Shown here: in pieces, positions 5,197-62,352 of the stretch
How positions within the stretch are numbered: the stretch's first letter is position 1
Layout: each line of letters begins with the position of its first letter
Assembly (NCBI GenBank): GCA_965242695.1
Contig: CBDESU010000002.1
Span: 736,001-800,000, forward strand
DNA: 64,000 nt
Direction of reading: 5' to 3'
DNA from: Cenarchaeum sp.
Lineage (GTDB): Archaea; Thermoproteota; Nitrososphaeria; Nitrososphaerales; Nitrosopumilaceae
Program-made: the position numbers and the translations under genes
Notes under the pieces: model-generated
What the model was told of the DNA's origin: nothing
Database searches by the model: none
The model's input: only the letters and a program-made list of their open reading frames with translations

Positions 5197-8100
5197 TTGC
5201 TGTCTTGCGCCCGTTCACGCGGCGGTGATGTTATATCCGCGCGTTTGGCGCCGCCTCGTGTGATGCGGCTAGGTTTGGCCCTGCTGCTGGCCCTCGCTGT
5301 GGGGCTGGCCGTACTTCCCGCGGCGGTGGACATCGGATCGTATGCCATGCATGGCAGCGACGCGGCCGAGCCGCACGGTCAGGAGCCGGGCATTATTGCC
5401 GTGGCCGACACCGACAACCACCGCATCCTAGTGTTCCATTCCAACGGCACCTTTGCCCACAGCTTTGGGTCGTACGGCTCGATCCACGAAAAGTCCTCCT
5501 ACTTGACCTACGGCCAGTTTCACTCGCCGTCCGGCGCCGCCGTCGGCCCAGACGGGCGGATCGTCGTGGCCGACACCGGCAACCGCCGCATCCAGGTGTT
5601 CAGCGCTGACGGCACTTTTGTCAACGTCCTTTACTTCGGCCGGTATGACACGCCGTACGCCGCCGCATTTGCCCCCAACGGGAGCATCGTGGTGGCCTAC
5701 AGCGACAGCACGTACGTCAGCGGCAGCGGCCGCCAATACGAGAGCCGCATCCAGGTGTTCAACGCGGACGGGACGCGCACCCCTGGCTTCGGGCTGTACG
5801 GTGATGTCGTTCCCTCATCCCCGTCCGACATCGCCGTCGGCCCCGACGGCCAGATCGCGGTGTCACACAGCAACAGCCACACACACATCCACCGCATCCA
5901 AGTCTACCACCCCAACGGCACGCTTGCCATTGCGTTTGGGTCGTACGGAGTAGGACCCGGGCAGTTCCAATCTCCCTCAGGTGTTGCAATCGCCCCCGAC
6001 GGCCGGATCGCGGTGGCCGACACCGGCAACGACCGCATCCAGGTGTTCCACCCCAACGGCACCCTCGCACTTGCGTTTGGGTCGTACGGCGCCGGCCCTG
6101 GACAGTTCATATCACCGTCCGGCGTTGCAATCGCCCCCGACGGCCGGATCGCGGTGGCCGACACCGGCAACGACCGCATCCAGGTGTTCCACCCCAACGG
6201 CACGCTTGCCAGCGCCATTGGGACCGTTCCCGACGCAGGACGGGGCTATGCCGTTCCCGAAGTCGCCGTCGCCCCAGACGGGAAGATCGTGGTGGCAGAC
6301 GCCAACAACCACCGCATCCATGTCTACCACCCCAACGGCACCCTTGCCAGCGCATTTGGGTCGTTCGGTGAGGGGCGCGGGCAGATCCAAGATATGAAAG
6401 ACATTGCCGTCGCCCCCGACGGGAAGATCGTGGTGACTGACTCCCCCCACTCCAACGGATTGGCCAGGCGCATCCAGGTGTTCAACGCGGACGGCACACC
6501 CGACCTCGGCTTTGGGCCGCGCGGCGACGGGACTGCGTACTTGCGCCTGATATCCAACTATCCCTGCTACGTGCGTTCTTACGATGCCCCGCAGCCCATA
6601 TCCGCCCTCGCCGTCGCCCCCGACGGGAAGATCGTGGTGGCCTACAACAGCGGCAGCAGGAATTATATTCCAGACTACCATATACGAGTGCTCAACGCGG
6701 ACGGCACGTGCGACCTCGACTTTGGTTTGGATTTCCAAAGCACCGCGCGCACGGTATCCGTAGACGCCCTCGCCGTAGCCCCCGACGGGCGGATCTTGGT
6801 GGCCTACAGCGAGGGAGTCGATCGCCACCGCGAGGGCCGCATCCTAGTGCACAACGCGGACGGCACGCGCGCCGATCCGCCTCGCATTTCGGCGTATGCC
6901 GTTTGGCCCTCGCGGGTCGGGAATGTGATCGACATGGCAGTCGCCCCAGACGGGCGCATCGCGGTGACTCACGCCTACAGCAGCCGCATCCACGTGCTCA
7001 ACGCGGACGGCACGCCCGCCAATGTCTTTGCAACGTTCGGAGACTTTTTCCGTTGGGGGCCACGCCCGTCATCCATGGCCGTAGCCCCCGACGGGGGCAT
7101 CGTGACGGCCGACACCTACAACGATCACATCCAAGTGTTCCACCCCAACGGCACGCGCGCACTTGTCTTTCCATCGTCGCTCGCACGGGAGCCATGGACG
7201 ACCGACGCCGCCAGCGACGGCCCCCATCCACACGGCATGCCAGACCTCGACTTTGCGACGTCCCGCGTCGGCGCCTCGTCCGTCGCCGTCGCCCCCGACG
7301 GGAGCATCGTGACGGCAGATGCCAGCTACCACCGCATCCTAGTGCGCAACGCGAACGTCACGCCCGCCTTTTACATAGGGTCGTTCGGCGCCGGACCCGG
7401 GCAGTTCGACTACCCATCCGGCGTCGCCGTCGCCCCCGACGGCCGCATCGTGGTGTCCGACACCGGCAACCACCGCGTCCAGGTGTTCAGTGGCGACGGC
7501 ACGTATTCCTTTGGTTTTGGGTCGCGCGGCAACGGGACAGGGCAGTTCGACTACCCGTCCGGCGTCGCCGTCGCCCCCGACGGCCGCATCGTGGTGTCCG
7601 ACACCGGCAACCACCGCATCCAGGTATTCGACGCGGACGGCGCTCCAACCCTCATCATTGGGTCGACCGGCAACAGGTCTGGGCAGTTCGACTACCCGTA
7701 CAGCGTCGCCGTCGCCCCCGACGGCCGCATCGTGTCGGCCGACATCGGCAACGGAGTCCAGGTGTTCCACCCCAACGGCACGTTTGACCTGGGGTGGTAT
7801 GTGGGCGAAGTCAGGGGCGTGAACCACCCGACACCTCTGGCCGAAGTTGCTGTCGCCCCGGACGGAAAGATCGTCGTGGCAACCGTCATAGTACCCGGCC
7901 AACTTATGCCCTACGGTGTAGGAGTGTTCCACCCCAACGGCACGCGCGCCTTTGACTTTCTGTCCTACTACGGTTCTCCCCGCTATGGTGGCACCCCGAC
8001 AGGCGTAGCCGTCGCCCCCGACGGGAGGATCTTGGTGGCTGCCGGCAACCTCTACGGGTTCGACGCGGACGGCACACCCTCCTTTGCCTTTGGTGGACGT

Positions 8101-10416
8101 GGTGGATATGCCAATGAACCGTCCGGCGTGGCCGTCGCCCACGACGGAAAGATCGCGGTGTCCGACCATCACAGCCACCGCATCCGCGTGCTCGACGCGG
8201 GCGGCGCTCTGGTCCGCACCATTGGGTCGTTCGGTAGCGGGACGGGGCAGCTCCAATATCCCCAAGACATCGACATTGGCGGCCCCGACGGCCGGATCGC
8301 CGTGGTCGACGGCAGGCCATTATTCTGGGCCAACCCAGACCGCATCCAGGTGTTCCACCCCAACGGCACGTTCGCCTTTTCCATCGGGCCGCACGACGTA
8401 GACGACGAGGCGGCAGGGCCGTTCTACCCGAGCGACGTCGCCGTCGCCCCCGACGGGAGGATCGTGGCGGCCTACAACAACGACTACAGGGTCAGGGGGC
8501 CGTGGGGCCCCCTTGACCCACATGTCAGGGTGTTCGACGCGGACGGCACCTTCTCCTTTGCCTTTAGGCCGCCGCCCGACGGGCTGCCGTGTTCTTTGCA
8601 CGGCGTTGATGTTGCTCCAGACGGGAGGATCGTGGTGGCCACCTCTGCCAACTGCCTCGGCGGCGGCTCTCGTAGCAGCATTCAGGCCTACCACCCAAAC
8701 GGCACGTTTGACACCACCATCAAGTCGGGGGCATACTGGGACGTCGCTGTCGCCCCCGACGGGTGGATTGCTGCGGTGAACTACGTCGGCCACAGGGCGA
8801 ACTACCGCGCGAATATCCAGGTTTTCGACTCCAGTGGCGTGGGCCATTCTAACATTGGCACTAAGGGTGCGGGGGCCGGGCAGTTCTCTTGGGGCGTGCC
8901 AGACATTGCCGTCGCCCCCGACGGGAGGATCGTGGTGGCCGACAACAGCAACGATCGCATCCAAGTGTTTCAACGAGACGGCACGCTAGACCGCATCTTG
9001 GGGTCGTCCAACCTCGGCTTTGCCGCAGGCGCCGGGCCGCTGCGATCTCCAGCAGGAGTAGCCATTGGCCCTGCCCAGCCCCCCGTCGTCGTCGAGCCCC
9101 CGCCCCCGTTCAACGGCACCGGGCCGCCTCTGGCGCCCAACGGCACCGCTCCCCAGCCCCCCGTCGTCGTCGAGCCCCCGCCCCCGTTCAACGGCACCGG
9201 GCCGCCTCTGGCGCCCAACGGCACCGCTCCCCAGCCCCCCATCGTCGTCGAGCCCCCGCCCCCGTTCAACGGCACCGGGCCGCCTCTGGCGCCCAACGGC
9301 ACCGCTCCCCAGCCCCCCGTCGTCGTCGAGCCCCCGCCCCCGTTCAACGGCACCGGGCCGCCCCCTGCACCACCACCCCCGGCCGTCGCAGGACCGGGCG
9401 GCGGCATCGGGACGCCCGGCTTCGCCGGCGTCGGGGCCGCATCGCAGCTGGTAATCGACGTGGCGAGGCTGGCAGACTCTAGCGCCTCGCAGATCTCGGG
9501 CGACCCGAATGCGAGCACCGCGACGTTCCCGCCGCGCGAGACGGCCGTGGTTACGCCGTTTGTAGAGGTCACGTTCCCGCCCAGCGTGACGGCCTCGCGC
9601 GTGCCGTCCGATGGCTTGCTTGCCCTGAACGTCTCTGCAGAGGCGCCGCCCGACGAGCAGGTGCAGCGCGCACTTGCGTATGCAGGGTCGGGGCGCGTCG
9701 TACCGCAGAGGATTGTCGAGGTGGGCGGCTCTAACAGCGGCGGCGGAGCAGAGCGCGTCACGTTCGATCAGCCCGTCCGCATAGTCCTAGAGGGGCAGGC
9801 GGGAGGCCGCGCATTCTACATCCAGAGCGCGGGCGGCGCGATCATGCCCATTGACGCCGCCTGCGCTGCCGACGATACGGCCAGGGTGCACCGGCAGCTG
9901 GCCGGCGCCGGCGAGTGCTGGGTGGACTCTGCGGACGGCAACGACAAGATCATCTACACGTACCACTTTACCCGGTTTGGCACCGTGGTGTCCGAGAACG
10001 GGGCTCTGCCGCCCGTGGTCCACACGTGCTCGGCGCGCCTCGGAACGCCGAACCTAGACGTGAGCGCATCCCTCGGCGAGCAGTCGTCTCCCGTGCAGCA
10101 AGCGCTGATCAACTCGGGATCGCTGCCGTTCGCAAGAGTAGAGCTTGAGGCGACGCCGTGGTACGTTGACTGGGACGGTAGCGCCCCGCCCGCCGCGGGC
10201 CATCCGTCCCTGCCCTCCTCGATCTCCGAGGTGCTCTTCGAGGACGTCGACTTCGGCCATGTGGCAACGGCTGTCAATGGGACGGTGGTTGCACGCGGGC
10301 TCGGTGGCGGGGACATCGCGCCATTGTCGTTCGTGGCAGACCTGACTCCGTATGACGAAGTACAGGGCAGCGCACTTGTTCAGTATGTTACGTACCTAGC
10401 CCAATGCAGCCGGTAG
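5197..10416 (+). CDS. large secreted NHL-repeat (beta-propeller) surface protein with Pro-rich stalk and C-terminal domain
   Basis: Signal-like hydrophobic N-terminus (true start probably the MRLGLALL ATG); more than 20 NHL-type repeats (PSGVAVAPDGRIVVADTGNHRIQVF); Pro-rich tandem repeat; 1739 aa. Confidence 0.9.
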   Translation: MLSCARSRGGDVISARLAPPRVMRLGLALLLALAVGLAVLPAAVDIGSYAMHGSDAAEPHGQEPGIIAVADTDNHRILVFHSNGTFAHSFGSYGSIHEKSSYLTYGQFHSPSGAAVGPDGRIVVADTGNRRIQVFSADGTFVNVLYFGRYDTPYAAAFAPNGSIVVAYSDSTYVSGSGRQYESRIQVFNADGTRTPGFGLYGDVVPSSPSDIAVGPDGQIAVSHSNSHTHIHRIQVYHPNGTLAIAFGSYGVGPGQFQSPSGVAIAPDGRIAVADTGNDRIQVFHPNGTLALAFGSYGAGPGQFISPSGVAIAPDGRIAVADTGNDRIQVFHPNGTLASAIGTVPDAGRGYAVPEVAVAPDGKIVVADANNHRIHVYHPNGTLASAFGSFGEGRGQIQDMKDIAVAPDGKIVVTDSPHSNGLARRIQVFNADGTPDLGFGPRGDGTAYLRLISNYPCYVRSYDAPQPISALAVAPDGKIVVAYNSGSRNYIPDYHIRVLNADGTCDLDFGLDFQSTARTVSVDALAVAPDGRILVAYSEGVDRHREGRILVHNADGTRADPPRISAYAVWPSRVGNVIDMAVAPDGRIAVTHAYSSRIHVLNADGTPANVFATFGDFFRWGPRPSSMAVAPDGGIVTADTYNDHIQVFHPNGTRALVFPSSLAREPWTTDAASDGPHPHGMPDLDFATSRVGASSVAVAPDGSIVTADASYHRILVRNANVTPAFYIGSFGAGPGQFDYPSGVAVAPDGRIVVSDTGNHRVQVFSGDGTYSFGFGSRGNGTGQFDYPSGVAVAPDGRIVVSDTGNHRIQVFDADGAPTLIIGSTGNRSGQFDYPYSVAVAPDGRIVSADIGNGVQVFHPNGTFDLGWYVGEVRGVNHPTPLAEVAVAPDGKIVVATVIVPGQLMPYGVGVFHPNGTRAFDFLSYYGSPRYGGTPTGVAVAPDGRILVAAGNLYGFDADGTPSFAFGGRGGYANEPSGVAVAHDGKIAVSDHHSHRIRVLDAGGALVRTIGSFGSGTGQLQYPQDIDIGGPDGRIAVVDGRPLFWANPDRIQVFHPNGTFAFSIGPHDVDDEAAGPFYPSDVAVAPDGRIVAAYNNDYRVRGPWGPLDPHVRVFDADGTFSFAFRPPPDGLPCSLHGVDVAPDGRIVVATSANCLGGGSRSSIQAYHPNGTFDTTIKSGAYWDVAVAPDGWIAAVNYVGHRANYRANIQVFDSSGVGHSNIGTKGAGAGQFSWGVPDIAVAPDGRIVVADNSNDRIQVFQRDGTLDRILGSSNLGFAAGAGPLRSPAGVAIGPAQPPVVVEPPPPFNGTGPPLAPNGTAPQPPVVVEPPPPFNGTGPPLAPNGTAPQPPIVVEPPPPFNGTGPPLAPNGTAPQPPVVVEPPPPFNGTGPPPAPPPPAVAGPGGGIGTPGFAGVGAASQLVIDVARLADSSASQISGDPNASTATFPPRETAVVTPFVEVTFPPSVTASRVPSDGLLALNVSAEAPPDEQVQRALAYAGSGRVVPQRIVEVGGSNSGGGAERVTFDQPVRIVLEGQAGGRAFYIQSAGGAIMPIDAACAADDTARVHRQLAGAGECWVDSADGNDKIIYTYHFTRFGTVVSENGALPPVVHTCSARLGTPNLDVSASLGEQSSPVQQALINSGSLPFARVELEATPWYVDWDGSAPPAAGHPSLPSSISEVLFEDVDFGHVATAVNGTVVARGLGGGDIAPLSFVADLTPYDEVQGSALVQYVTYLAQCSR
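9076..9363 (+). repeat. 78-bp tandem repeat (about 3.7 copies) encoding QPPVVVEPPPPFNGTGPPLAPNGTAP
   Basis: Units start at 9076, 9154, 9232 and 9310 and are nearly identical in DNA. Confidence 0.95.
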
Positions 10417-10680
10417 CGCTGGCGGCCGGGCTGCGGGGCGTAGCGCCGGCCCGTGCAGCTAGCCTGCCGTACGCCGTATTACGCCCCACCTTCAACCTAG
10501 TTCGGTTCTGGGACCATAGCAGGCCCTGCCGGCGGCCGTCTCGGGCGGGTCACGGGACATGAGCCGCCCCCATCCGCCCGCCGGCGAAGGCCCGGGCCCT
10601 GCACACTTGCCGTCATGCACCGTATTACGCCCGAGGTCCGTTCACCGCCAGGTTGCGACACTGCTATGCACGGGCCGGCA

Positions 10681-11148
10681 TCAGGGCGCCGCGCCGATCA
10701 TGACCGAGACGGTCCCGATCACGTTGCCGTTCGGGTCTATCGTAATATCGACGCTCTGGCCTTCGGGCACCTCGAACGCCTTTTGCCCCTGGTAGTCCCA
10801 GGTGTAGTACTCGGAGATCGGCGACTTGTGCAGCGTGCCGTCGAGCTCAAAGTCGTCGGCGAACGAGAACGACTCGCCCTCCATGCTGATCGACAGGACG
10901 CGGGGGCTGTCGCCGTTGGGGACGAACTTGAACTCGTACCTGCCGGCCGCAATGTCAAACGTCCTCTCGTGGATGCCGTCGACGTACTCTTCCTCCCACA
11001 AGAGGGCGTGGAACGCAAAGCCCTGCCTGGCAGAGCCTGTCGTGTCCGAGGCGACGGTGTTGATGACGAACAGGGCGGCGATGGCGGCCACTGCCGCTAT
11101 TGCCGCGTACGCCGCCTTTTTCACGCCCCGCCCGCGGCGCCGGGCCAA
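10681..11148 (-). CDS. hypothetical protein with N-terminal membrane anchor
   Basis: 155 aa; hydrophobic N-terminus followed by a beta-rich soluble domain; codon usage like the core genes. Confidence 0.75.
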   Translation of the reverse strand: MARRRGRGVKKAAYAAIAAVAAIAALFVINTVASDTTGSARQGFAFHALLWEEEYVDGIHERTFDIAAGRYEFKFVPNGDSPRVLSISMEGESFSFADDFELDGTLHKSPISEYYTWDYQGQKAFEVPEGQSVDITIDPNGNVIGTVSVMIGAAP

Positions 11149-11906
11149 ATTAAGTCTTGCCGGCGGCCGGCCCGCGGATGGGAGCAGAGCGGGGCGGAGC
11201 CGCCGCCTGCCTCTTGGCTCGCAGTCGTTGCCGCCCCCGCCTTTTGCATGCGCGTACGCCGCCTGCCCTTGGCGGTGCCATGAACCGCGCCCCGACCCGA
11301 CCTGCCGGCTCGCCTTCCCGCTCGGGAGGCATCTGCCCGCGGGCCTCCGCCCCCGCCGCCCGGACGGCTAGGGAATGTCGATTCGTCCCTGCCTGTCCCA
11401 GCGCGGGAGTCGAGACAGCGGTGCGGGGCATGCCGCCGATGTCCAATGACGGCACGCCCGACGCACCGGCGCGAGTCCACGAAGGGCGGCATTAAGGCTA
11501 ACCCTGAGCCTGTCGGGATGCTAGGGTTGCCCGGCAGGAGGCGTCCACTGCCCTGCACAGCTTGCGTTTGGCGGCAATCATGCGGCCGTGCTTGAGTTGC
11601 CCGGCAGGAGGCGCCCGCCGCGCGGCACAACGGGGGCGATGACACTGCGGCCACCCTTGGCGCCGGGGCGCGGCAGGGGGAGGCGGCCAGAGACAAGGGC
11701 GCACCTCCCCCGATGCCTAGGCCGCCCCGCCGCAGCCCTCCCCGCCGCCCCGCCGGCGCGTGGCAGGGCGCCTCATCCCCCTCCGGCACCTGTGCGCCGC
11801 CAGGCCGCCCTCCGCCCCCCGTCGCCCGCGCCTTGTCGGCCATTGTTGACCAGTTGTCAACCGAACTTGACCCCCTCCATTAAGCCGCCGCCCGCCAGCA
11901 TGGGGC

Positions 11907-12569
11907 ATGACACGCTTTGAAGACACGTGGACGCGGCCCGTCTCGCCCGGCCTGACCGAGCGACTAGGCACCGCCGTCCACCCCCCGGGCCCCCTCAAGC
12001 CCAGGATAAAGACCGCCGTCCAAAGCATACAGCAGCAGGTCGGCAAGCTCGACGCCATCCTGGCAAAGCTCAAGGACAAGGACGCAAAGCTCTTCCAAAA
12101 GGTCGTCGCGGCCACGCAGCAGCACGACGCGCACGCGAGCAGGGTCCTGTCCAGCGAGCTTGCAGAGGTGCGCAAGGTCACAAAGGTCCTCGGCAACACG
12201 AGGATAGGCCTGGAGCAGATCGAGCTGCGGCTTACCACGTGCAGCGACATCGGGGACACAGTGATGACCATAATGCCCACCGTCGGCCTGATGAGGGGCA
12301 TACAGTCGTCCCTGGCCAGGTTCATGCCCGGCGCGGACCAGGAGATCGGCAAGATGACCGAGATGCTCGGCGGCCTCATGACCGAGACGTTCTCGGGAGA
12401 CTCGATGTTCGGCTCCGGCGAGGTCTCCAACGAAGAGTCCGACAAGATACTCCAAGAGGCCGCCGCGGTCGCAGAGAGCTCGGTCGGGACCAAGTTCCCG
12501 TCGACCCCGTTCGACCTCGACGAGCACGCAAAGGCGGCCGAGCAGCAGCAGCCAGGCAAGTTTGCCTAG
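11907..12569 (+). CDS. ESCRT-III/Snf7 family cell division protein, CdvB-like paralogue
   Basis: PLKPRI...DAKLFQKVV...LSSELAEVRKV...LEQIELRLTT...ILQEAAAVAE; paralogous to 51301-51969. Confidence 0.88.
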   Translation: MTRFEDTWTRPVSPGLTERLGTAVHPPGPLKPRIKTAVQSIQQQVGKLDAILAKLKDKDAKLFQKVVAATQQHDAHASRVLSSELAEVRKVTKVLGNTRIGLEQIELRLTTCSDIGDTVMTIMPTVGLMRGIQSSLARFMPGADQEIGKMTEMLGGLMTETFSGDSMFGSGEVSNEESDKILQEAAAVAESSVGTKFPSTPFDLDEHAKAAEQQQPGKFA

Positions 12570-12603
12570 CCGCAAACACCCACCCCCCTCTTCTATTTCT
12601 CTC

Positions 12604-13317
12604 CTAGGGTCCGGCTCCGGCCGCCGCCCCTCCCCCGTTCTGCGGCGCGGACACCGAGGCCGCCCGGGCCGACAGCTCGGCCCTGACGCTCTTTATCCTG
12701 CCGCCCTCGTCGTTGACGACCTCGTCGATGTTGGCCAGGCGGCCCCTCAGGTCGGTAATGATGGCGCCGACCTCGTCGGCCTCGCCCTCTACCATGGCGC
12801 GCTTCTCGGCCAGGTCGCGCATGCCCCTGCTCTCCTCGTCGATGTACTCCCTGATCTTGACGAGCTTTTCGCGCAGGTTCTTGATGTCGACGAGCTCGTC
12901 CTCAATGTCCTTTTCGAGCCGCGTCCGCTTGTCCTTTAGGTTCTTGATCATGACGCCGACGTAGTCTATGGCCTCTTCCAGCCGGGCGCGCTTGCCGATC
13001 AGCGCATCGATGCCAATGTCCGACGAGCCCTGCAGGGGAGCCTGCATGCCGCTTCCTCCTCCAGCCTCCTGCCCGGCCGCGGGCTGGGCCCCCTGCCCTG
13101 CGCCGTCCTGCCGCCCCGCCTCGGCGGCCACACTACCGCCGCCGCCCTCGCCGTACCCCGAGAACCGCTCCGGCCCGGCGGCCGCCGCCTCGGCCTGCCC
13201 CGCCGCCAGGCCGTACGGGTCGGCGGCCACACTACCGCCGCTGCCGCCCTGCTCGGCCAGCCCGGCCCCTTCCCCGCCATCCCCGTCCTTCTTGAAGCGG
13301 TCAAAGAGCCCAGCCAT
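12604..13317 (-). CDS. coiled-coil hypothetical protein
   Basis: Low-complexity N-terminus, then a long heptad-rich helix (LEEAIDYVGVMIKNLKDKRTRLEKDIE). Confidence 0.75.
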   Translation of the reverse strand: MAGLFDRFKKDGDGGEGAGLAEQGGSGGSVAADPYGLAAGQAEAAAAGPERFSGYGEGGGGSVAAEAGRQDGAGQGAQPAAGQEAGGGSGMQAPLQGSSDIGIDALIGKRARLEEAIDYVGVMIKNLKDKRTRLEKDIEDELVDIKNLREKLVKIREYIDEESRGMRDLAEKRAMVEGEADEVGAIITDLRGRLANIDEVVNDEGGRIKSVRAELSARAASVSAPQNGGGAAAGAGP

Positions 13318-47823: not shown

Positions 47824-48549
47824 CTAGTCCCCCATGTCGTCGCCGTACTCTTTGAGGTATTTTCCCCACCCGTCCAGCTCGTACTTGTCCAGGCCGGCAG
47901 GGGGCCCCGCCGCCAGCACCTTTTCGATTACCTTGCGCAGCCTCTCCTTGTCGCCCTGCTTTTGGACCACCTTGTCAAGCGCATCCTCGTACTCGTCCGT
48001 CCACATGCCGCCGTAGTCGCGGACGTACCCGGCCGCCAGGTACCTTGCTATGCGCATGCGCACCCCCGTGTCGCCCGCCTTTTCCGCGCACCCTCCCATT
48101 GCCAGTATGCACCGGCTGGCCTGGTTGCGGAAGCGCTCGGTCACGCTGAATATGTGCGGAAGGTGGTCGATTATGGCATCCGCTATCTGCCCGTATATGC
48201 GCGCCGCCTCGGCGTAGTCGCCGATCTTTTCGCGCGCCTTTGCGTCCTTTGTGACGCTGACGAGGCTGATGTACGGGGTATGGTGCGATATGAGGCCCCT
48301 GTCCGAGCCCTTTTCGAGCAGCCTCTCGACCTTTGCATAGTAGTCGGCCCCGCGCGAGTCGGACAGGGACCGGCCCGCTAGCGCCCCGAACCGCCCCAGC
48401 ATGTCCCCGTCCCTGCGAAGCTCGGCGGCCAGGAACTTTTTGATGTCGGCCTCGGATACGACGTTGATCATCTTCCTGATCTCGGCCGCGGCGGGCTGCC
48501 GCTGCCCCTGTTGCCGCTTGCCCGCACTCTTTGGCGCCGCTCGGGCCAT
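47824..48549 (-). CDS. helical hypothetical protein (paralogue 1 of 3)
   Basis: MARAAPKS start, TTTTATA box upstream; same motifs as neighbours. Confidence 0.8.
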   Translation of the reverse strand: MARAAPKSAGKRQQGQRQPAAAEIRKMINVVSEADIKKFLAAELRRDGDMLGRFGALAGRSLSDSRGADYYAKVERLLEKGSDRGLISHHTPYISLVSVTKDAKAREKIGDYAEAARIYGQIADAIIDHLPHIFSVTERFRNQASRCILAMGGCAEKAGDTGVRMRIARYLAAGYVRDYGGMWTDEYEDALDKVVQKQGDKERLRKVIEKVLAAGPPAGLDKYELDGWGKYLKEYGDDMGD

Positions 48550-48948
48550 GGGGGGCGGGCCGCGCAGCCCGATATAAAACGGTGCGTCGCCATTGGCGTG
48601 CCTGAGATCGGCACGTTCCGGCTAGATGGGTCGTTACCCTCGCCAACCCCCTTCTTTCCTGTATGAGTCATGGCAGGGTGCATTGTCGCTTGTGTGGAAA
48701 TATAAGGCGAACTTGATCGGCCTGTCGGCAGAGCTCTGTCGTTTACCCTGGCGAATCTCACGTCTGCGTCAACGTCTTCCTAGGTTCACACTTGGCTTCT
48801 GCGCCGCACCGCTCATTTTACGCCCTCGTATTTCTTAGACTAAAAAACTACTCATGCATTCTAACCCACACACTTCAGGCGATTTGCGCGCAACGGAGGA
48901 GAAGGGGTGCAGATATTGTTCTGCATTGCCGTGCTTGTGACTGGCGTG

Positions 48949-49803
48949 TCAGAGATTCCAGTCATTCACAAGCTCGTCAACGTTCTTTTTGCCCAGAAAA
49001 TAGGACCCGTCCTTTAAGGCGAACCGTACTTGGTACCCTGCTTTATTCTTGGTTATGCTTCCATCTTTAATCCTGTTTTTCATTTCTTTGTTAGAAATAG
49101 TGATATATTTGATAACGTTGTTGCGATTACGAAGGACAAAGATATAGTACACATTTGGGCCGCTTGCTCTTTCGAACGCCTCTGGTCTAATTGTAATGAC
49201 GAAAGTTTTACCATCTTTACCTTCAGTCACAGTCTTAACTTGGATTTCGTACACATTCTTGCCCTTGGTGGCTCTTATGTCGATACCGCTATCGATTGTA
49301 ATGCGATCTGCGTTGTAGCCGCGCAGTAGCAGCTCGCTCATCACCCTGAACTCGCCGGCAGCGCCGATCCTCCTCTGATGATCTTTCCCGCCCGACTTGC
49401 CGATCTCTTCGCTGTCTTGGCCCCCGCCTGGCTTGATCGCTCCCATTGTCTGCCCGTCGCGATCATCCGGCGTCTTGTCGGTAGATGGTACGGTGTGCTC
49501 TCCTGCTCCCGTCCCACCGCCTTGGTCGTCGTTGCCCGACAGGGGCGCGTCCACGCCGCTCAGCTTGAACAATCCGGGTCCATCCTTGGCGAACCTTGAG
49601 CGCCCGCGTGCTATGTCGGTGTACAGCATGGCTCCCATGGTCGTCGCTGGAGTATCGCCCTTGGTCGTGATCCTACATGTCTCCGACGCCCTCTCGAGTA
49701 TCTCGGCAGCAGTGAGGGACTTGCCGGCCTCCTGTAGAACTGCATAAGCGGCATCACGATACTTCGACACGACGAGCGGGCGCCCGCGGTCTGCTATATG
49801 CAT
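48949..49803 (-). CDS. HARE-HTH plus PD-(D/E)xK nuclease fusion
   Basis: YRDAAYAVLQEAGKSLTAAEI...GDTPATTMGAMLY...F...GPGLFKL (HARE-HTH); IGAAGEFRVMSELL...GIDI...EIQVKT (nuclease). Start uncertain. Confidence 0.78.
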   Translation of the reverse strand: MHIADRGRPLVVSKYRDAAYAVLQEAGKSLTAAEILERASETCRITTKGDTPATTMGAMLYTDIARGRSRFAKDGPGLFKLSGVDAPLSGNDDQGGGTGAGEHTVPSTDKTPDDRDGQTMGAIKPGGGQDSEEIGKSGGKDHQRRIGAAGEFRVMSELLLRGYNADRITIDSGIDIRATKGKNVYEIQVKTVTEGKDGKTFVITIRPEAFERASGPNVYYIFVLRNRNNVIKYITISNKEMKNRIKDGSITKNKAGYQVRFALKDGSYFLGKKNVDELVNDWNL

Positions 49804-55670: not shown

Positions 55671-56023
55671 GCTGTACGGCGCGCCGGGCCGCCGTGCTTG
55701 TTTAAGTGCTTTGAAGGGGGGCGCGCCGCGCGGCCCTGCGTACCGGCGCGGAAAGGGCCAATGGCGCACCGTGGATTTCACTCCGTTGGCTACGGCAGGG
55801 GCCGACCTTTGCCCAAGAAGGCCAAGAGGGTGGTTAATATACCCACAGAATTGCGGCCCCCCGACATGGCCTGCTTGGCTCGCGCTTGCAGTTTCCACAT
55901 AGGCGATCCCTTATGTACTAGTGGTGGGGCCGCCCGTATGGTTTCCATGACTTACGCTGACCCTCTTGGGCGTCCAAGCACACCGTCCACGGTTTCCACC
56001 CTCGCGCCCACGCCGACTCTAAC

Positions 56024-56037
56024 GGGGGGGGGGGGGG
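56024..56037 (+). repeat. G14 homopolymer upstream of the island operon
   Basis: ctaacGGGGGGGGGGGGGGcaaaa, about 125 nt before the first gene. Confidence 0.9.
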
Positions 56038-56160
56038 CAAAAATTGGAGCGTCACTGTTAGCAACATGTTAAACACCCAACACAGCCATACCGACACCAC
56101 TATAGTTACAACCCACAATGTCTGTGTCGTGGCCGAACTTTTCGATCGGGAGTGGTTGCC

Positions 56161-57987
56161 ATGCTTCTGAAGTGGACATTTCCGCCCACGGGTGGGGGTG
56201 TTGCACACGGTTTTAACGATAGTGCACAAGAGCACTTTAGAAATGACGCATGGAAGCATACCATACGAGAGCTAATTCAGAACTCTCTTGATGCTGTTCG
56301 CAACAAGGGCCAGCCAGTTGTTGTTGAGATATCGCTAATTGACGTGCCGTCAATCGAACTAGGTGCACTCGACCTTGCTAAACATGTAAAAGAAGCATTA
56401 AAACGAGCTAAAAAACAGGGCGAGAAACACGGCGAAAAATTCTATACTGATGCATTAAAGATTTTGAAAAGAAAGAAAATTAAAACACTAGCAGTAAAAG
56501 ATGCAAACACCACGGGTCTTATTGATGGAAAATGGAGTGCCCTAGTATTCAGCGAAGGGGCCACTGATAAAGGTGGCATGAGTGCAGCCGGCGGGAGTTT
56601 TGGAATAGGTAAAAGCGCCCCCTATTTAGTGTCTGAACTTAAAACTGTATGTTACTCTACGTACTACGCCCGGCCTGGAAGAGAGGAACGATTTATTGCG
56701 CGCTGCAAGCTAATCGCACACAATGATCCACAGGGACGAGACGGTGAGCTTCAACACATTGGATTCGGTACGAAAGGAAGAGTCCAGCGTAACAAACGCC
56801 CGCACCCCACACGAGGTCAAAACATCTACAGTGACTTTCGACTTGGTGGTATTGGCAGTGGCATATTTATCGCTGGATTTAATCCATTATCAAAAGATTG
56901 GCTAAAGGTTGCCGAAAAATCCATTGCAGAGAGCTTTTTTGAGGCAATACATACAGAAAAGTTAAGCATAAAGTTAGATGGTCAATTAATAACACGCGAT
57001 ACGCTTGATGAAATTTTTGATCAAGATCCAGATAACGATTCGTCGTACTACTACCATGTAATCCGAGGCGATCCCAATGTAAAAACTGAATATATCAAGA
57101 CGGACTTAGGGGAGTTTACTCTAAAGTTCTATATCGGGCAAGATGGAATGCCAAACCGAATTGCTTATGTCAACAGGAGGGGCATGCTAGTTACAGACAC
57201 AAGACAGCGTAATAAAAATCCCTTTCACAAAGCAGTAGGTCGAGGCTGGGCCAAGTACGTGGCAGTTGTCACGGCTTCAAATGATGAAACAGATACAAAA
57301 ATACGTGAAATGGAGCCTCCCAACCACGGTACAATTGAACCCGGCCGCATCATTGATCCTGTTAGGCGTGACGAAATGGAAGCAGCACTGGCCAGTATAA
57401 GGGAGAAAATTGCTACGGTAATAGGTGATGCACTGCGGCTTAGCATCCAAGACCAAGAGATTAACGTATCTGAACTCGCAGGGATCATACCAATTGATGG
57501 GGACAACAGTGATGGTAAGGACGAAGAAAGTCAAAACGACGAAGTCGAGCTTAAGGTTCGAAAGCTCAAAGCACCAACACCTGGAGAGAGCTATACTGAG
57601 CAGAAAGGTCCAAGTAAAGGTCGGGGATCAACCGGTAAAAAGCGTGGCAAAAAACGTGAACAGAAAGAAGAACGTACCGGGGCACTTAATAAAATACGTA
57701 TAATGCGCATCGATGACAAGATGCGAGTGGCATTTACACCCACAGCATCTATGGAAGATATTCGCTTTTTGATTAGGCCCGCAGGTGAAGAGCGAATGCG
57801 AGAGCATGCTATTACGATTAGTAAGGCTAGAGCATTACACAGCAACACTTCTGTTCGTGCAGACGGCAAAACCGTGATCGTCTCTCCTCAAAATACAGAT
57901 AGGATAACAATGGATCTTACAGTGGGTAAGGCTAAAGCATACACAGGATATGAAATAGCCTGTGTTTCTCAGGAGGAGCAAAAATGA
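56161..57987 (+). CDS. GHKL (HATPase/MORC-like) ATPase
   Basis: RELIQNSLDA (N box), VKDANTTGL (G1), GGSFGIGK (G2), EPPNH. GGGAG before ATG 56161 (alternative GTG 56152). Confidence 0.82.
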   Translation: MLLKWTFPPTGGGVAHGFNDSAQEHFRNDAWKHTIRELIQNSLDAVRNKGQPVVVEISLIDVPSIELGALDLAKHVKEALKRAKKQGEKHGEKFYTDALKILKRKKIKTLAVKDANTTGLIDGKWSALVFSEGATDKGGMSAAGGSFGIGKSAPYLVSELKTVCYSTYYARPGREERFIARCKLIAHNDPQGRDGELQHIGFGTKGRVQRNKRPHPTRGQNIYSDFRLGGIGSGIFIAGFNPLSKDWLKVAEKSIAESFFEAIHTEKLSIKLDGQLITRDTLDEIFDQDPDNDSSYYYHVIRGDPNVKTEYIKTDLGEFTLKFYIGQDGMPNRIAYVNRRGMLVTDTRQRNKNPFHKAVGRGWAKYVAVVTASNDETDTKIREMEPPNHGTIEPGRIIDPVRRDEMEAALASIREKIATVIGDALRLSIQDQEINVSELAGIIPIDGDNSDGKDEESQNDEVELKVRKLKAPTPGESYTEQKGPSKGRGSTGKKRGKKREQKEERTGALNKIRIMRIDDKMRVAFTPTASMEDIRFLIRPAGEERMREHAITISKARALHSNTSVRADGKTVIVSPQNTDRITMDLTVGKAKAYTGYEIACVSQEEQK

Positions 57988-58823
57988 CCCGCGATAAGCT
58001 CCTCCTGCCTCATCCGGTGCTACGACCGGGCGGCGGACTGGATTACAACGAAAGCTGCAATTTTGGGCTGGAAATAAAGCCTGGAGCCTCTAGACGTACA
58101 TCGGAAGGGGTCGTAGAAATTAAAGCATCATTCACGCTTGTTAGCCCTACTTTAGAAGAGATGGTAAAGGAGGGCAAGGCTCAGTACCTTGTATTGGCGA
58201 CATGCGCAAAAACATACTATCGACTTGCAACATCTTTTGATGTCCAACAAATATTGCTAGAATTTCCTGTTAAAAATTTGGCTGGTACTCTTCGATTAAC
58301 ACCTTATATTGTAACAACTAAAGAAATAGAGTGGTTTATTGCACCAGAACACGATCCTGAAATAAAAATATTTCAAGGATTTGGCAAGATCCCGCCAGGA
58401 TCAATACTTGCCATAGGTGCCCCGCACGAAATTGAAATGGAACAAATTGGGACTGTTATGTCTGCAATAAAACTGGTTCCAAACGCAAACATTATGGAAG
58501 GGCGTTACACAATAAACGATGAAGGTGATTTTATAATGATTGAACTAAATAATAAAACATACACAGATATTGCACGCATGAGGACCCACATAAAAAATCT
58601 ACTCTACCCTTCTATCTATCAGGCAGCTATTGAGTATGCCCTACGTAAAGCTACTGAAGAAGCAGATAGTAAGTGGGCCAAAGCTTTACAAAAAACGCTA
58701 GAAGAACATGGTCTTAGTAACGATAATATTGAAGAAAAAGCGAATGAATACGCCCAAATAATAATGGGGGACCCGTTAGGGCAAATGCTCGAATGGTGCA
58801 ACAGGAGTGTTTCATTTGACTGA
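57984..58823 (+). CDS. hypothetical protein, partner of the GHKL ATPase
   Basis: 279 aa; PHPVL N-terminus, PGSILA; ATGA overlap and AGGAGG Shine-Dalgarno. Confidence 0.8.
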   Translation: MTRDKLLLPHPVLRPGGGLDYNESCNFGLEIKPGASRRTSEGVVEIKASFTLVSPTLEEMVKEGKAQYLVLATCAKTYYRLATSFDVQQILLEFPVKNLAGTLRLTPYIVTTKEIEWFIAPEHDPEIKIFQGFGKIPPGSILAIGAPHEIEMEQIGTVMSAIKLVPNANIMEGRYTINDEGDFIMIELNNKTYTDIARMRTHIKNLLYPSIYQAAIEYALRKATEEADSKWAKALQKTLEEHGLSNDNIEEKANEYAQIIMGDPLGQMLEWCNRSVSFD

Positions 58824-60513
58824 CACCATACGGCTACATAGGCTCACCGGTGATGCATTTGTGAGTTTGCGTAACTATGCGAGCAACCACCCTGATGCTT
58901 ATTGTGACCCTAATGCCGACTTTGGGAAGATTCTTGAATCATGTTGTGATAAAAGCTATTCAAACCCTGTAAACATTACCCTAGATTCTGCCCTGTCCCT
59001 AAAGGAACCACTAGAATATAGTAAAAGCAATGCCAAACGTCATCTTGCAGACAAACAAGCTTTAGATTTCTATAAATCTTTGAAGGGCATGACGCCCAGA
59101 CTGGCCTCTGATCCTTATATTTTAGCCTACATAAACCACTTTTATCTTCATAAATATGGTATCCAGAGATGGCCTATAAGTAAAGAAAAACAGGCGCCAG
59201 CCACTGAGCAAGCGGCACCTACATCGACTAGTGCGCCATTAGGACTGAGCAAGAGAGCATCTCACATTCGGCTACACTGGTTGACCTCTAGTAACCAGCG
59301 TCAACAGATATGGAATGCCAGTATTGCTGGCCGTACATGGTGGATTGCACATGTAGCGATTAAAGCGGCTGATGCTTCAGGAGGGGCCTTTACAGCTAAA
59401 GATGCGTTGGATCTTTTTGCGGAGACGCCCGAGTATTACCACAGAACAATGGAGTATGTAGTTCTCAGGAATCCAGTTCTCCTAGCAGAGTGTGTCCGCG
59501 CACTAATGAATGAAGCTCGTGGGATTAATCGCAGTGGATATAGAGAAATGGGAATGGAACTAAACCGTGAAGCCGGCGCGCGAGTGCTTGATTCACTTAA
59601 CCGAAACGACCTACGAAGGCTTGTTCATCGATCTGCCGATCGTCTTATGCGCATGAAAGACTACGTAAACGATCGCCATCACCTCGTTGGTGTCGACAAG
59701 TTCAATGTACTTAGCCTCGGGGCAGGCGCACAATCGACGGTGCTTGCACTCATGGCAGAGGAGGGGTGGGAAGGCTTAGAAAAACCCGATCTCGCGATAT
59801 TCGCTGATACGCAATGGGAACCACGTGCGGTGTATGATCACCTAAAATGGCTTAAGAGCCAATTGTCCTATGAGGTAGTTACGGTTACGGCCGGTGACAT
59901 AAAAGACAACATGCTTCACGGCGTCAACCCTGATGGTGACAAGTTCCTTGACGTACCGGTATTCTTACGCAATGCGGACGGAACTAAGTCCGTGGCAGCT
60001 AGGCAATGCACCACTCACTACAAAATAATACCCATACACAAAGAAATCCGAAAAAGACTTAAAATCCCTGCTGGCAAGCGTGTTCCTAAAGACGTCCAAG
60101 TCGTGATGTGGTTAGGAATAAGCGCAGACGAGTCAACTAGAATGAAGCCTAGCAGGGATGAATGGATAGACAACCGATACCCGCTAGTTGAGATGAGCAT
60201 GACTCGAGCCGATATATACAAGTGGTTTGGAGATCGCTACCCTGATCGACATCTACCCCGCAGTGCTTGCGTGGGTTGCCCGTACCACGACGATATGGAG
60301 TGGAAATGGATCAAGGACAACGAACCCGAGTCATTCAAGGATGCTGTGAACATTGATTGGTCTTTGCGCAATGTGCCTGCCGCACGTGGTTCACTACGCG
60401 GGGAGGCATACCTACACAAGTCGAGAATGCCGCTAAGTGACATTGACTTTTCGCAAACTCGTGACTATGATGACTACATGGCAACTGAATGTGAGGGGTT
60501 GTGCGGTGTCTAA
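58807..60513 (+). CDS. DUF6339-like domain fused to a PAPS-reductase-like (PP-loop) Cys-rich domain
   Basis: N-half: ASDPYILAYINH...RW...GRTWW...LNREAGARVLDSL. C-half: LSLGAGAQST, FADTQWE, RQCTTHYKIIPI, GISADESTR, SACVGCPYH, ECEGLCGV. Confidence 0.75.
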   Translation: MFHLTDTIRLHRLTGDAFVSLRNYASNHPDAYCDPNADFGKILESCCDKSYSNPVNITLDSALSLKEPLEYSKSNAKRHLADKQALDFYKSLKGMTPRLASDPYILAYINHFYLHKYGIQRWPISKEKQAPATEQAAPTSTSAPLGLSKRASHIRLHWLTSSNQRQQIWNASIAGRTWWIAHVAIKAADASGGAFTAKDALDLFAETPEYYHRTMEYVVLRNPVLLAECVRALMNEARGINRSGYREMGMELNREAGARVLDSLNRNDLRRLVHRSADRLMRMKDYVNDRHHLVGVDKFNVLSLGAGAQSTVLALMAEEGWEGLEKPDLAIFADTQWEPRAVYDHLKWLKSQLSYEVVTVTAGDIKDNMLHGVNPDGDKFLDVPVFLRNADGTKSVAARQCTTHYKIIPIHKEIRKRLKIPAGKRVPKDVQVVMWLGISADESTRMKPSRDEWIDNRYPLVEMSMTRADIYKWFGDRYPDRHLPRSACVGCPYHDDMEWKWIKDNEPESFKDAVNIDWSLRNVPAARGSLRGEAYLHKSRMPLSDIDFSQTRDYDDYMATECEGLCGV

Positions 60514-60847
60514 TCTGACAAATTTTCTCACGAGAGATTTTATGTCGTTTGGCCATGGTTGCCACGAGGTGATTGATCCTGGGCCGGGATTGTATGCAAT
60601 GTGGTTGCGCGGCCAGTGCATATACGTGGGAATGAGCGAGGATCTTCACAGACGCATTTTTCAGCATGTGGCCTCCGAGGACAACCAGGATCTTGCCAAT
60701 TATTACCGACAATTTCCTGGCGAGATTCGAATAGCTATCGTGCACGTGGATGCCAAAGCAGATCAACTCCGTCGACTTGAGTCTGAGGCCATTGAAAAAC
60801 TCCGACCTATCGTTAACAAGCGTGGTGGAGGTGGCACACGGCAATGA
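60506..60847 (+). CDS. minimal GIY-YIG nuclease
   Basis: GLYAMW...IYVGMS..LHRRIFQH...ESEAIEKLRPIVN; GTG overlaps the upstream stop. Confidence 0.82.
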   Translation: MSNLTNFLTRDFMSFGHGCHEVIDPGPGLYAMWLRGQCIYVGMSEDLHRRIFQHVASEDNQDLANYYRQFPGEIRIAIVHVDAKADQLRRLESEAIEKLRPIVNKRGGGGTRQ

Positions 60848-62154
60848 CCAGCTGTCATCCTGCACTTCGAGGAAAATTCGGGAAAACAGAATATTTTTTG
60901 ACCGTTATGCCGGTAGGCGATCTGGTAAACCGCGTGAAATTTCCTGTTGAGATGCCGGAATGGAAAGAGTATACTATCGAAGAACGCTACCAGCGTAGCC
61001 TTAATATGAAACGCATTATAGAAGAAATGGCCCCGTACTTTGCTCAAGACGATAACCGGTTCACGGGTTCGTTAGTCTTGGCCGTCCAAAATGATGAAAA
61101 CATGGAGTTTGAGCACCTGTCTAAGCTAACGGGAGACTTGGGCGCACTTCCTACCATGTACAAGAGTGCTTCGTCCGAAATGGGGTTTGTTGTCATGTCT
61201 GGGCAAGAAGTACTAGTTCCACTAGATGGGCAGCACCGTGCCAAGGCGTTCAAGATGGCTATTGAAGGCCACGCCCGAAACGATCGTGAACCTCCCGTGA
61301 TACTACCCAACGTAAGTTTTGCTCGCGATATGGTGGCGGTAATACTTGTGCGTTTTGACAAAAAGCTATCACGATACATATTTAACAAGATTAATCGCTA
61401 TGCTAAACCAACCGTCAAGGGGGACAAACTAATCACCGATGACGATGACGCAGTTGCAGTCATGACTCGGGCTCTGATAAGAGACGGTGTGATCCCTGCT
61501 AGGCTAGTCAAGGTTAGCGGTAATACACTCAACCTACGTGCGATCGAATTTACAACACTATCTACTTTCTACGAAGCGAATAAAAAACTCGTCTCAGCAT
61601 TGCCGATTCCTCTTGCGGACAAGCCAGAAAAAATGAATTTAGGTGAACGAGAAAAACGCCTTAAGGAGCTTCAAATTGAGTGGAGGCGTCTATTGTCTGG
61701 TGTCACAGAATGGAAAAGAGCACTTACCGCCTCTGATCAAGGTGGAGACGCGACGCGGATCAAGTTGCGTGAAATTTCCTTGCTTGCCAGGCCCGTTGGG
61801 CAGGCAGCCTTAATTAATGGCTATACATTGGCATGTATGAAAGACAGAACTCGTGCAGACAAAGATGAGCTGGTGGCAAGGATCAATAAGATAGATTGGG
61901 GTGTCAAAGCAGAGCTGTGGAAGGGTTTGCTGGTAGGTCCAAATAACAAAATATTCTCTAGCATGCCTGCAGCTAGGAACGCAGGCTTGATGACTGCACA
62001 CATGATCGGTATCGCATTGACCCGTAAGGAAAAGGAACGCGTCATAAAATTTGTCTACGGTAATGCTTCTATGAACCGCAATTTGCCCAAGCCTATAGCA
62101 CTTTCCCGCTACGAACTAGACGAACATAAGCAACAAGCAAGGGATGGTCTATAA
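60844..62154 (+). CDS. dndB: DGQHR-domain / DndB-family protein
   Basis: YQRSLNMKRI, RFTGSLVLA, PLDGQHRAKA, IFNKINRYAKPT; GGAGGTG Shine-Dalgarno and ATGA overlap. Confidence 0.88.
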   Translation: MTSCHPALRGKFGKTEYFLTVMPVGDLVNRVKFPVEMPEWKEYTIEERYQRSLNMKRIIEEMAPYFAQDDNRFTGSLVLAVQNDENMEFEHLSKLTGDLGALPTMYKSASSEMGFVVMSGQEVLVPLDGQHRAKAFKMAIEGHARNDREPPVILPNVSFARDMVAVILVRFDKKLSRYIFNKINRYAKPTVKGDKLITDDDDAVAVMTRALIRDGVIPARLVKVSGNTLNLRAIEFTTLSTFYEANKKLVSALPIPLADKPEKMNLGEREKRLKELQIEWRRLLSGVTEWKRALTASDQGGDATRIKLREISLLARPVGQAALINGYTLACMKDRTRADKDELVARINKIDWGVKAELWKGLLVGPNNKIFSSMPAARNAGLMTAHMIGIALTRKEKERVIKFVYGNASMNRNLPKPIALSRYELDEHKQQARDGL

Positions 62155-62352
62155 GCGCTGATGCCAGACCCTTGCATTGCCGTTGATAGACCCGCGTCAA
62201 TGCCCGACATTTCGTGGGCGGTGATGTTGATCTAAGCAAGGCACGACTGCGACGTTGTGGCCGCATTATGACTAACCTTTTGTAAACCTGAACCCGAGCT
62301 GTCCCACCCTACGCCCCACAACAGTTATTATCGCACGCGCTCCGTGCCGTGC

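Follow-up and report, generated by a model that had tools for sequence, protein, structure and literature searches.

A DUF6339-fused enzyme of the PAPS-reductase fold in a conserved five-gene cassette of Cenarchaeum sp.: a candidate phosphorothioate-type modification-restriction system

Immune systems that modify the DNA backbone comprise dnd, ssp, tdp and type 4 BREX in the overview given in PMC12914056, where tdpC is said to be sufficient on its own for synthesis of phosphorothioate (PT) and brxP and brxC are said to make PT. A section of PMC10853773 treats SspE and DndB as equivalents within the ParB superfamily and places GIY-YIG/URI nucleases next to Dnd modification genes. We analysed a window of 64,000 nucleotides (nt; contig CBDESU010000002.1, positions 736,001 to 800,000) from a 3.89-Mb Cenarchaeum sp. 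genome, and in it a cassette of five genes (g1 to g5, Table 1; positions refer to the window). An earlier reading of the bare sequence (the original prediction) had proposed these genes as a non-canonical modification/restriction system, possibly sulfur-based. We found the five genes to be conserved as a unit, mobile between genomes and located in a defence hotspot, and the enzyme encoded by the second half of g3 to travel in related loci with alternative partner sets, many of them with ParB-fold or nuclease proteins known from PT systems. In our favoured reading, which we hold to be evenly balanced between right and wrong, the cassette would be a PT-type modification-restriction system with g3 as the marker and g4 plus g5 as a split SspE-like effector.

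A word-index search gave 609 relatives of the fused g3 protein within the length window. At least 563 places among 185,579 species genomes encoded a relative, and 80 loci were kept (4 thaumarchaeal, 76 from bacterial metagenome-assembled genome records), whose architectures were determined by tblastn and clustering of open reading frames (ORFs). The order of the five genes was repeated in five other thaumarchaeal genomes (L001, L002, L003, L097 and the cut locus L004/L098), with protein identities of 29-69%, unrelated flanks and other insertion sites; L097 is from a genome of the same genus. The closest cassette-bearing kin were assigned to Cenarchaeum, Nitrosopumilus and Thaumarchaeota. A haloarchaeal host, suggested by the GC content of 70%, was rejected since the kin genomes and the loci that carry the cassette are thaumarchaeal. 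Both the archaeal host and the conservation of the neighbourhood elsewhere, a check that the original prediction had suggested, were borne out by these genomes. In L002 the g1 homologue (7333-9145) was recovered in two tblastn pieces, a sign of decay. That the island might be chance debris with unrelated genes lying side by side is already contradicted by the synteny at different sites, and also by the translationally coupled overlaps between the genes and by the monophyly of the five-gene sequences in the enzyme tree (support 0.996). Its low GC (guanine plus cytosine) content and the lack of mobility genes to explain the insertion would suit such debris, which we nevertheless regard as extremely improbable.

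The island measures 6.6 kb (55721-62346), has a GC content of 0.42-0.50 against 0.66-0.72 outside, and lies between a CbiT-like methyltransferase/cobalamin methylase cluster and the NFACT gene. Its borders were placed at 55721 and 62346 because 55720 is the last position before it, and 62347 the first after it, with DNA homology to the corresponding locus of the closest genome (G004, 85-86% protein identity). Three genomes of the same genus (G001, G002 and G003) carry an empty site, with the flanking genes 0.6-0.85 kb apart. The gap in G004 measures 12.3 kb and holds other low-GC cargo (L123, G004:C2:432900-447700, 4461-13099) with DUF499, DUF1156/N6_N4 methylase, SNF2/NOV_C helicase and DDE transposase genes, including a trio which we take to resemble an Hma-type system. 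The insertion site is a variable defence hotspot, and it appears to be polymorphic in natural populations. In one public run, a contig of 12.5 kb covers the island together with its two flanks and is identical except for three extra G in the poly-G run; minor low-depth contigs of runs X1 and X6 match the NFACT gene and diverge left of 62351, and in run X6 the island was covered at a depth of 0-4.5 versus about 10-18 for its flanks. The window contained no tRNA, and we found no convincing flanking repeats at the island and no replication, integration or transfer genes within it.

The 35 fused loci L001-L035 all carried g1, g2 and g3, and the gene or genes next to g3 varied: DGQHR/DndB-like in 7/35, GmrSD-like in 10/35 and full-length SspE in 2/35, altogether 19/35. 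The two SspE genes following the triad, in L016 and L027, matched their family at 1e-236 and 9e-240, and no SspB, SspC or SspD gene was found within 7 kb of them. PbeA- or PbeC-like genes occurred within 7 kb in 5/35 fused loci. In 22 loci, according to ORF clusters, a stand-alone form of the enzyme had genes for an SF2 helicase, a GHKL ATPase and a PLD nuclease downstream, and the same trio followed the fused form in four more. Eleven loci combined, by tblastn, the stand-alone enzyme with GIY-YIG and DGQHR genes, and five (L067, L071, L076, L077, L080) showed an unfused order, with a triad containing DUF6339 and then a separate enzyme gene. Groups in the enzyme tree largely tracked the partner set (support 0.95-0.999; intruders L058, L037, L068 and L070). 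The main fused clade contained 36 of the 37 fused sequences (support 0.963), with varying downstream partners, and the five-gene clade lay inside it.

Several of these neighbourhoods showed features of their own. The four-gene cluster with the SF2 helicase (L036, L040, L041, L045, L046, L048, L051, L053-L056, L059-L061, L063-L066, L069, L072-L074) consists, besides the enzyme, of a ResIII/DEAD helicase, a HATPase_c_3 GHKL protein with a weak MzaB match and a PLD-like nuclease; it gave no strong PADLOC match and may be a further undescribed system. In L019 (11653-14022) and L022 (11502-13982) a protein of 789-826 amino acids (aa), whose only match was a sigma-70 region-4 helix-turn-helix, is encoded between the fused g3 and the PbeA/PbeC-like genes.

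The enzyme domain of g3 matched PHROG 424 'PAPS reductase' (PAPS, 3'-phosphoadenosine-5'-phosphosulfate) at 7.4e-43 over domain residues 10-280. Among PADLOC models only one, for SspD, was matched (4.6e-15, residues 301-518), and SspD was likewise the only PADLOC family matched by 34/34 relatives; g3 gave no NCBIfam match at E<=0.1 and no match to DndC (TIGR03183) or BrxP. Structural comparison of the g3 model by VIA returned PAPS reductase 7rge (Z 11.7), APS (adenosine-5'-phosphosulfate) reductase (Z 10.8) and the [4Fe-4S] proteins LarE and NcsA (Z 10.5), a PP-loop/PAPS-reductase fold (Z 10.4-11.7) in which these [4Fe-4S] sulfur transferases are tied with the reductases. The conserved set of residues comprised a GAGxQS loop (305-310), D334, C401, C488, C491, C562 and C566. 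D334 and the five cysteines were unchanged in 120/120 aligned cellular and viral sequences, as was the loop, where gaps occurred only in five N-terminally incomplete rows.

The same enzyme is widespread outside cellular cassettes. A profile of the domain recovered 6,293, 4,056 and 1,997 representative clusters (50% identity) at E<=1e-3, 1e-10 and 1e-30, respectively; members were mostly about 275 aa long, and 13 of the best 150 had at least 500 aa. Cultured phages contributed 44 records and plasmids 172. Viral contigs held at least 593 relatives, and 79/80 of the loci kept from them were without partner genes; recurrent neighbour clusters there matched PHROG families of DNA helicases, polymerases, primases and methyltransferases, and by these matches viral copies tended to sit among replication genes. 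Identities to the window's enzyme were 43-50% for the 80 kept viral-contig relatives and 31.0-42.7% for the 25 listed of the 44 cultured-phage records. The enzyme is not a divergent DndC; it belongs to a very large, mostly phage- and plasmid-borne family of stand-alone proteins. These stand-alone forms without partner genes suggest that the enzyme can act alone. On a Mesorhizobium plasmid (L206, 4542-5861) the PAPS-like match lies inside a coding sequence annotated as DNA cytosine methyltransferase, adjoining a P4-alpha primase gene, and the enzyme may be fused there to a second domain that modifies DNA.

The viral relatives raise the question of whether the cassette could be selfish or serve anti-defence, with a phage-type PAPS reductase that would shield the island, or DNA entering together with it, from host Dnd/Pbe, and with nucleases that would form an addiction module. 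Phages and conjugative plasmids dominate the family, and one plasmid copy adjoins an ArdC-like zincin and a ParB-N protein near traG. The host genome itself contains two canonical dndB-dndC clusters, each with a cysteine desulfurase nearby (Table 1); the first is followed by PbeA (7.6e-180), 11 GmrSD_N genes occur in the genome, and the host probably phosphorothioates its own DNA already. A passage of PMC13551039 predicts phage PAPS reductases to be homologues of DndC/SspD and, citing Piel 2022, reports that one of them helps to evade host Dnd. The island, however, is without replication, integration and transfer genes, the cellular enzyme clades lie apart from the viral clade (support 0.954), the partners are of kinds typical for defence, and the insertion site is a hotspot of defence genes. 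We consider this origin very unlikely.

The genes ahead of the enzyme domain correspond to the candidate system PDC-M33 of PADLOC: g1 matched PDC-M33A (PDLC04582) at 3.8e-84, g2 matched PDC-M33B (PDLC04583) at 3.7e-29, and the N-terminal half of g3 matched PDC-M33C (PDLC04586) at 1.2e-16 and Pfam DUF6339 at 3.1e-17. A, B and C are adjacent and co-directional here as in the candidate system, whereas PDC-M33C stands alone, at about 250-310 aa (247-312 in the models), and g3 is a fusion of 568 aa. Stand-alone DUF6339 proteins were seen in L100, L101 and L071. A full-text search for PDC-M33 and DUF6339 gave no paper; supplements on archaeal defence or PADLOC candidates may list PDC-M33.

For g1 the original prediction of a GHKL ATPase found weak support, with motif-like residues conserved. 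We took the N-box (ExxxNxxD), G1 (DxGxG) and G2 (GxxGxG) motifs as criteria for this Bergerat fold; among 29 relatives N44, D117, T120, G122, G148, G151, G153 and K154 were invariant, and E40 and D47 nearly so. Alignment with the HATPase_c_3 family by hhalign gave E 2e-4 and a probability of 46.6%, and the top result of a profile search of PDB was Topo VI-B (E 0.16), aligned at the N-box. The window's own protein had no Pfam match, and HATPase_c_3 was matched by 1/29 relatives (0.022). A basic low-complexity linker spans about residues 470-530. The AlphaFold model of g2 (predicted local distance difference test, pLDDT, 89.2) shows a beta-sandwich N-terminal part and a C-terminal helical bundle, in which we recognised no catalytic motif. 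No Pfam, NCBIfam or PHROG family matched g2, Foldseek found nothing at E<=1e-3, and VIA returned generic fibronectin type III/immunoglobulin-like domains (best Z 9.2 over 81 residues). The DUF6339 part is all-helical (model pLDDT 87), and a search with the full-length g3 model gave no structural match for it. In the ESM Atlas, g1 matched unnamed clusters only and DUF6339 gave no usable match; among PDB sequences neither the proteins g1 and g5 nor the profiles A1, A3 and A5 had a significant match.

PDC-M33 triads without the PAPS domain are found in islands of restriction-modification and abortive infection genes on Lactococcus and Ligilactobacillus plasmids. The triad is not simply a substitute for DndD/SspC, since it exists without the PAPS enzyme. 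One could go further and see in it a self-sufficient abortive or sensor defence, with the PAPS-like domain as a mere regulatory nucleotide-binding or sensor module, the DNA unmodified and g4 plus g5 an independent effector. Such independence would agree with the plasmid islands and with the five loci of unfused order, and the CysH-like accessory protein of Type IV-B CRISPR is thought not to make PT in the relevant part of PMC8175902. The strict invariance of loop and cysteines, shared by stand-alone viral copies, would argue for catalysis instead; moreover, the same enzyme clades pair with other nuclease and helicase sets without the triad, and the combination of g4 and g5 with the enzyme turns up in two distinct enzyme clades. 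We judge a self-sufficient triad with a non-catalytic PAPS-like domain to be improbable. Near the SspE-linked triads we also observed second, divergent PDC-M33A-like genes (L016, 3178-6863, minus strand, 1e-24; L027, 16720-18630, plus strand, 2.5e-25), and a further g1-like ORF occurs in L034 (11713-15487, minus strand), a locus without SspE. Two ORFs without annotation, about 260-330 aa in size, come after this g1-like gene in L016 and L034; these may be paralogous triads that work together.

The fourth gene matched Pfam GIY-YIG (PF01541) at 6.2e-6 with 26.9 bits (cut-off 22.6). Residues Y30, Y40, G42, R50, H54, N60, E92 and N104 (numbered from 60506) were invariant in 10 relatives, and we take Y30, Y40, R50, E92 and N104 to be catalytic. 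The fifth matched the DGQHR family (TIGR03187) with 95.1 bits (cut-off 58.85) and Pfam DndB at 1.5e-32, and stayed with 70.9 bits far below the cut-off of 328 for the DndB equivalog TIGR03233; the DGQHR motif (D128-R132) was invariant in 14 relatives. With these matches the domain calls of the original prediction for DUF6339, the PAPS-like enzyme, GIY-YIG and DGQHR agreed with family models. Counterparts of g4 and g5 in the three-gene loci (enzyme, GIY-YIG, DGQHR) were much closer to them than were the DGQHR proteins encoded in other fused loci, with g5 identities of 42-49% versus 21-24%. It accordingly looks as if two modules with one enzyme in common had merged into the five-gene cassette. 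A complex prediction for g5 with g4 scored 0.25 against a mark of 0.32, which weighs neither way. For the pair, a split SspE/GmrSD-like effector would fit better than a nicking or regulatory role within modification; whether they form an effector at all could in our estimate go either way. Variation was also observed at these positions: in three Dehalococcoidia loci (L018, 11655-12164; L023, 11719-12252; L025, 11654-12160) a protein of 168-177 aa without family match replaces GIY-YIG between g3 and the DGQHR gene, and in L042, L044 and L057 the DGQHR gene that follows GIY-YIG is broken into two ORFs, another sign of decay.

In our estimate g3 probably modifies DNA, and for the mark being PT we see about equal weight on either side. 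In the favoured modification-restriction reading the C-terminal domain of g3 would mark host DNA, most likely by sulfur replacing a non-bridging phosphate oxygen. The sulfur could be drawn from a housekeeping cysteine desulfurase through a cysteine/Fe-S relay (C401, C488 and C491 with the C-terminal tail C562/C566); nine Aminotran_5 matches in the host genome are candidate donors. The GHKL-type ATPase g1, the adaptor g2 and DUF6339 might form an ATP-driven, DNA-engaging complex that guides the enzyme fused within g3 to its sites, the role attributed to SspB/C or DndD/E, or alternatively a second restriction arm. As a split counterpart of SspE/GmrSD, g5 would be the sensor or NTPase partner whose ParB fold reads the mark or the nucleotide state, and the nuclease g4 would nick or cut unmarked DNA. 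That phages and plasmids carry the enzyme on its own, and cells together with interchangeable nuclease/ATPase sets, fits a self-marking enzyme whose restriction arms vary. Backbone sulfur is favoured because of the cysteine set, the exclusive SspD match, the SspE, GmrSD and Pbe neighbours and the literature. The SspE, GmrSD-like and Pbe contexts of relatives strengthen the original notion of a non-canonical, possibly sulfur-based system, whereas the chemistry of its mark is something we infer.

A number of observations weigh against this reading. The SspD match is weak (about 1e-15) and none of the DndC, BrxP or NCBIfam models was matched; a search of PDB at E<=10 gave no sequence relatives of the enzyme except a PP-loop fragment. 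GAGxQS stands where GMP synthase has SGGVDS and departs from the SGGxDS of PP-loop ATP pyrophosphatases, so that ATP-dependent adenylation by g3 is not assured. The five ORFs include no cysteine desulfurase, the GHKL assignment of g1 is weak, and the triad can work without the PAPS enzyme because PAPS-free plasmid triads exist. With two canonical dnd clusters in the host, a specificity of its own would be required of any third PT system. Finally, the partner loci were retrieved with the enzyme as bait and come from defence-rich genomes, where adjacency may partly be coincidence.

The unusual loop also bears on whether the same self-marking and restriction logic could operate with another chemistry, such as base thiolation, adenylate-dependent amidation or a sulfonate-derived group from PAPS/APS. 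PP-loop enzymes that amidate or thiolate (GMP synthetase, TilS, NAD synthetase, QueC) share the fold with similar Z values, and the enzyme falls outside the DndC, BrxP and NCBIfam SspD models. Sulfur or Fe-S is nevertheless favoured by the five invariant cysteines, which include a CxxC and the C-terminal CxxxC tail, SspD is the only defence model matched, and the SspE and Pbe-like neighbours are PT-associated. A different chemistry is on balance unlikely.

Should g3 mark DNA, the backbone-modification immune systems would gain a modular family of about 2,000 clusters (50% identity, E<=1e-30), represented among the 80 kept genome loci mostly by uncultured metagenome-assembled genomes, and DUF6339 and PDC-M33 would gain a function. 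The split GIY-YIG and DGQHR pair would offer a simple model for the role of DndB-like ParB-fold proteins, and the 'PAPS reductase' genes that phages and plasmids so commonly carry would have a testable explanation. More tentatively, and with somewhat more doubt than confidence, we propose a fifth PT immune family, in which a five-cysteine phage-type enzyme would be the hub that marks DNA alone and the GHKL-B-DUF6339 triad, the SF2 helicase-GHKL-PLD trio, the split GIY-YIG plus DGQHR pair and SspE/GmrSD its interchangeable arms. If so, the viral and plasmid 'PAPS reductase' genes, which number in the thousands and are usually interpreted as auxiliary genes of sulfur assimilation, would encode DNA-marking anti-restriction enzymes.

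The five ORFs, all on the plus strand (Table 1; the third runs from 58807 to 60513, the fourth at its longest from 60437 to 60847), overlap their neighbours, by ATGA at g1/g2 (57984) and g4/g5 (60844) and at g2/g3, where the GTG at 58807 lies ahead of the end of g2 at 58823. The in-frame start candidates of g4 (GTG 60437, ATG 60467/60470, GTG 60506) lie within the final 8-77 nt of g3. Conservation of the N-terminal extension of g4 is no independent evidence for a start, because it is the other frame of the conserved g3 C-terminus. The same-strand overlapping genes on a low-GC island are thus as originally described, apart from 60506 as the start of g4, which is one of several candidates. Shine-Dalgarno sites ahead of the island genes, in contrast to the host ORFs, were confirmed as well: AGGAGG lies 8 nt upstream of the g2 start, GGAGG ahead of g5 and GGGAG 8 nt upstream of the g1 ATG at 56161, and GGAG abuts the g3 GTG at 58807 or sits 8 nt ahead of an alternative TTG at 58816. 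The motif occurred in 5/40 host ORFs of the window compared with 13.8% of random host 15-mers, a random level, although this count depends on the choice of start codons. A putative promoter ahead of g1 may lie in the leader (55721-56150). The run of about 15 G at 56024-56038 is either an artefact of homopolymer sequencing or, close to the operon promoter, a variable tract. A second dip in GC content (0.52-0.60 against about 0.70) at about 48000-49500 of the window suggests another inserted segment upstream.

Table 1. Coordinates of the island features in the window and of the dnd clusters elsewhere in the host genome.
Feature	Position	Strand	Remarks
Non-coding leader, island left edge	55721..56150		poly-G run (56024-56038) and AT-rich stretch ahead of g1
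g1, putative GHKL-type ATPase	56152..57987	+	611 aa from GTG 56152 (608 aa from ATG 56161); PDC-M33A match
g2, beta-sandwich and helical protein	57984..58823	+	279 aa; PDC-M33B match
g3 N-terminal half, DUF6339 domain	58807..59670	+	all-helical, fused to enzyme domain; PDC-M33C match
g3 C-terminal half, PAPS-reductase-fold (adenine nucleotide alpha-hydrolase) enzyme	59671..60513	+	PHROG 424 and SspD matches
g4, minimal GIY-YIG nuclease	60467..60847	+	about 113-136 aa; start 60437, 60467 or 60506
g5, DGQHR-domain protein (ParB/Srx fold)	60844..62154	+	436 aa; TIGR03187 match
Island right edge	62155..62346		reaches host NFACT gene (start 62344)
Host dnd clusters	contig C1, ~1,473,000-1,482,200 and 1,493,600-1,499,800		loci L118-L121, L082, L083, L110

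Compared with described systems, SspABCD-SspE resembles the cassette in that SspD, with a weak score, is the only defence-model match of the enzyme and that, in L016 and L027, the homologous triad has a bona fide SspE gene downstream. The logic of g4 plus g5, a ParB-fold part with a nuclease, is likewise similar, given the equivalence of SspE and DndB put forward in that section of PMC10853773. The cassette differs by the lack of SspA, SspB (DUF4007) and SspC, by a GHKL-like ATPase instead of one of the SspC type, and by an effector that is split and carries a GIY-YIG instead of an HNH/DUF1524 nuclease; PADLOC found no SspE (DUF262 plus nuclease) effector in the island. As the original prediction had stated, the five ORFs matched no DndD, DndE, SspB, SspC, cysteine desulfurase or methyltransferase, in a scan that left smaller ORFs of the island aside; nor did they match SspA. 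DndABCDE with DndFGH or PbeABCD shares with the cassette a PAPS-reductase-fold enzyme with conserved cysteines and a DGQHR/DndB-like protein, and PbeA/C-like genes lie beside homologous triads in 5/35 loci. Differences are that g3 misses the DndC model, that the DndD/DndE pair is absent, that g5 is far below the DndB equivalog cut-off and that the true dnd clusters of the host are elsewhere, on contig C1.

TdpA and TdpB, reportedly described by An et al. in 2025, appear to differ from the partner genes found here (GHKL triad, GIY-YIG plus DGQHR). The libraries searched, without a Tdp sequence or model among them, gave no match named Tdp, and nothing relevant came from a profile search of PDB sequences. 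Synthesis of PT by tdpC alone, as stated in the overview of PMC12914056, would fit a stand-alone enzyme with variable partner sets. The same overview has BREX type 4 making PT with an ATPase and a PAPS-reductase domain fused to a DNA-engaging domain, an arrangement similar to g3, although the fusion partner is DUF6339 here and DUF4007 there; BrxP, BrxC, PglZ and BrxL had no PADLOC match at E<=0.1 among the five ORFs. The stand-alone phage and plasmid enzyme of PHROG 424 is the best sequence match, with identical loop and five cysteines, and differs in being a single gene, with 79/80 viral loci lacking defence partners and one plasmid copy neighbouring genes of an anti-restriction type. PDC-M33, a bioinformatic candidate, shares g1, g2 and the N-terminal half of g3 in the same order and strand; in the cassette its C component is fused to the PAPS-reductase-fold enzyme and followed by GIY-YIG and DGQHR genes. 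The original prediction had not recognised the combination as a named system, which stands for the whole and has to be corrected for three of the five functions. The combination of parts is in no described system, and its g1-g2-DUF6339 section is already catalogued as the candidate PDC-M33.

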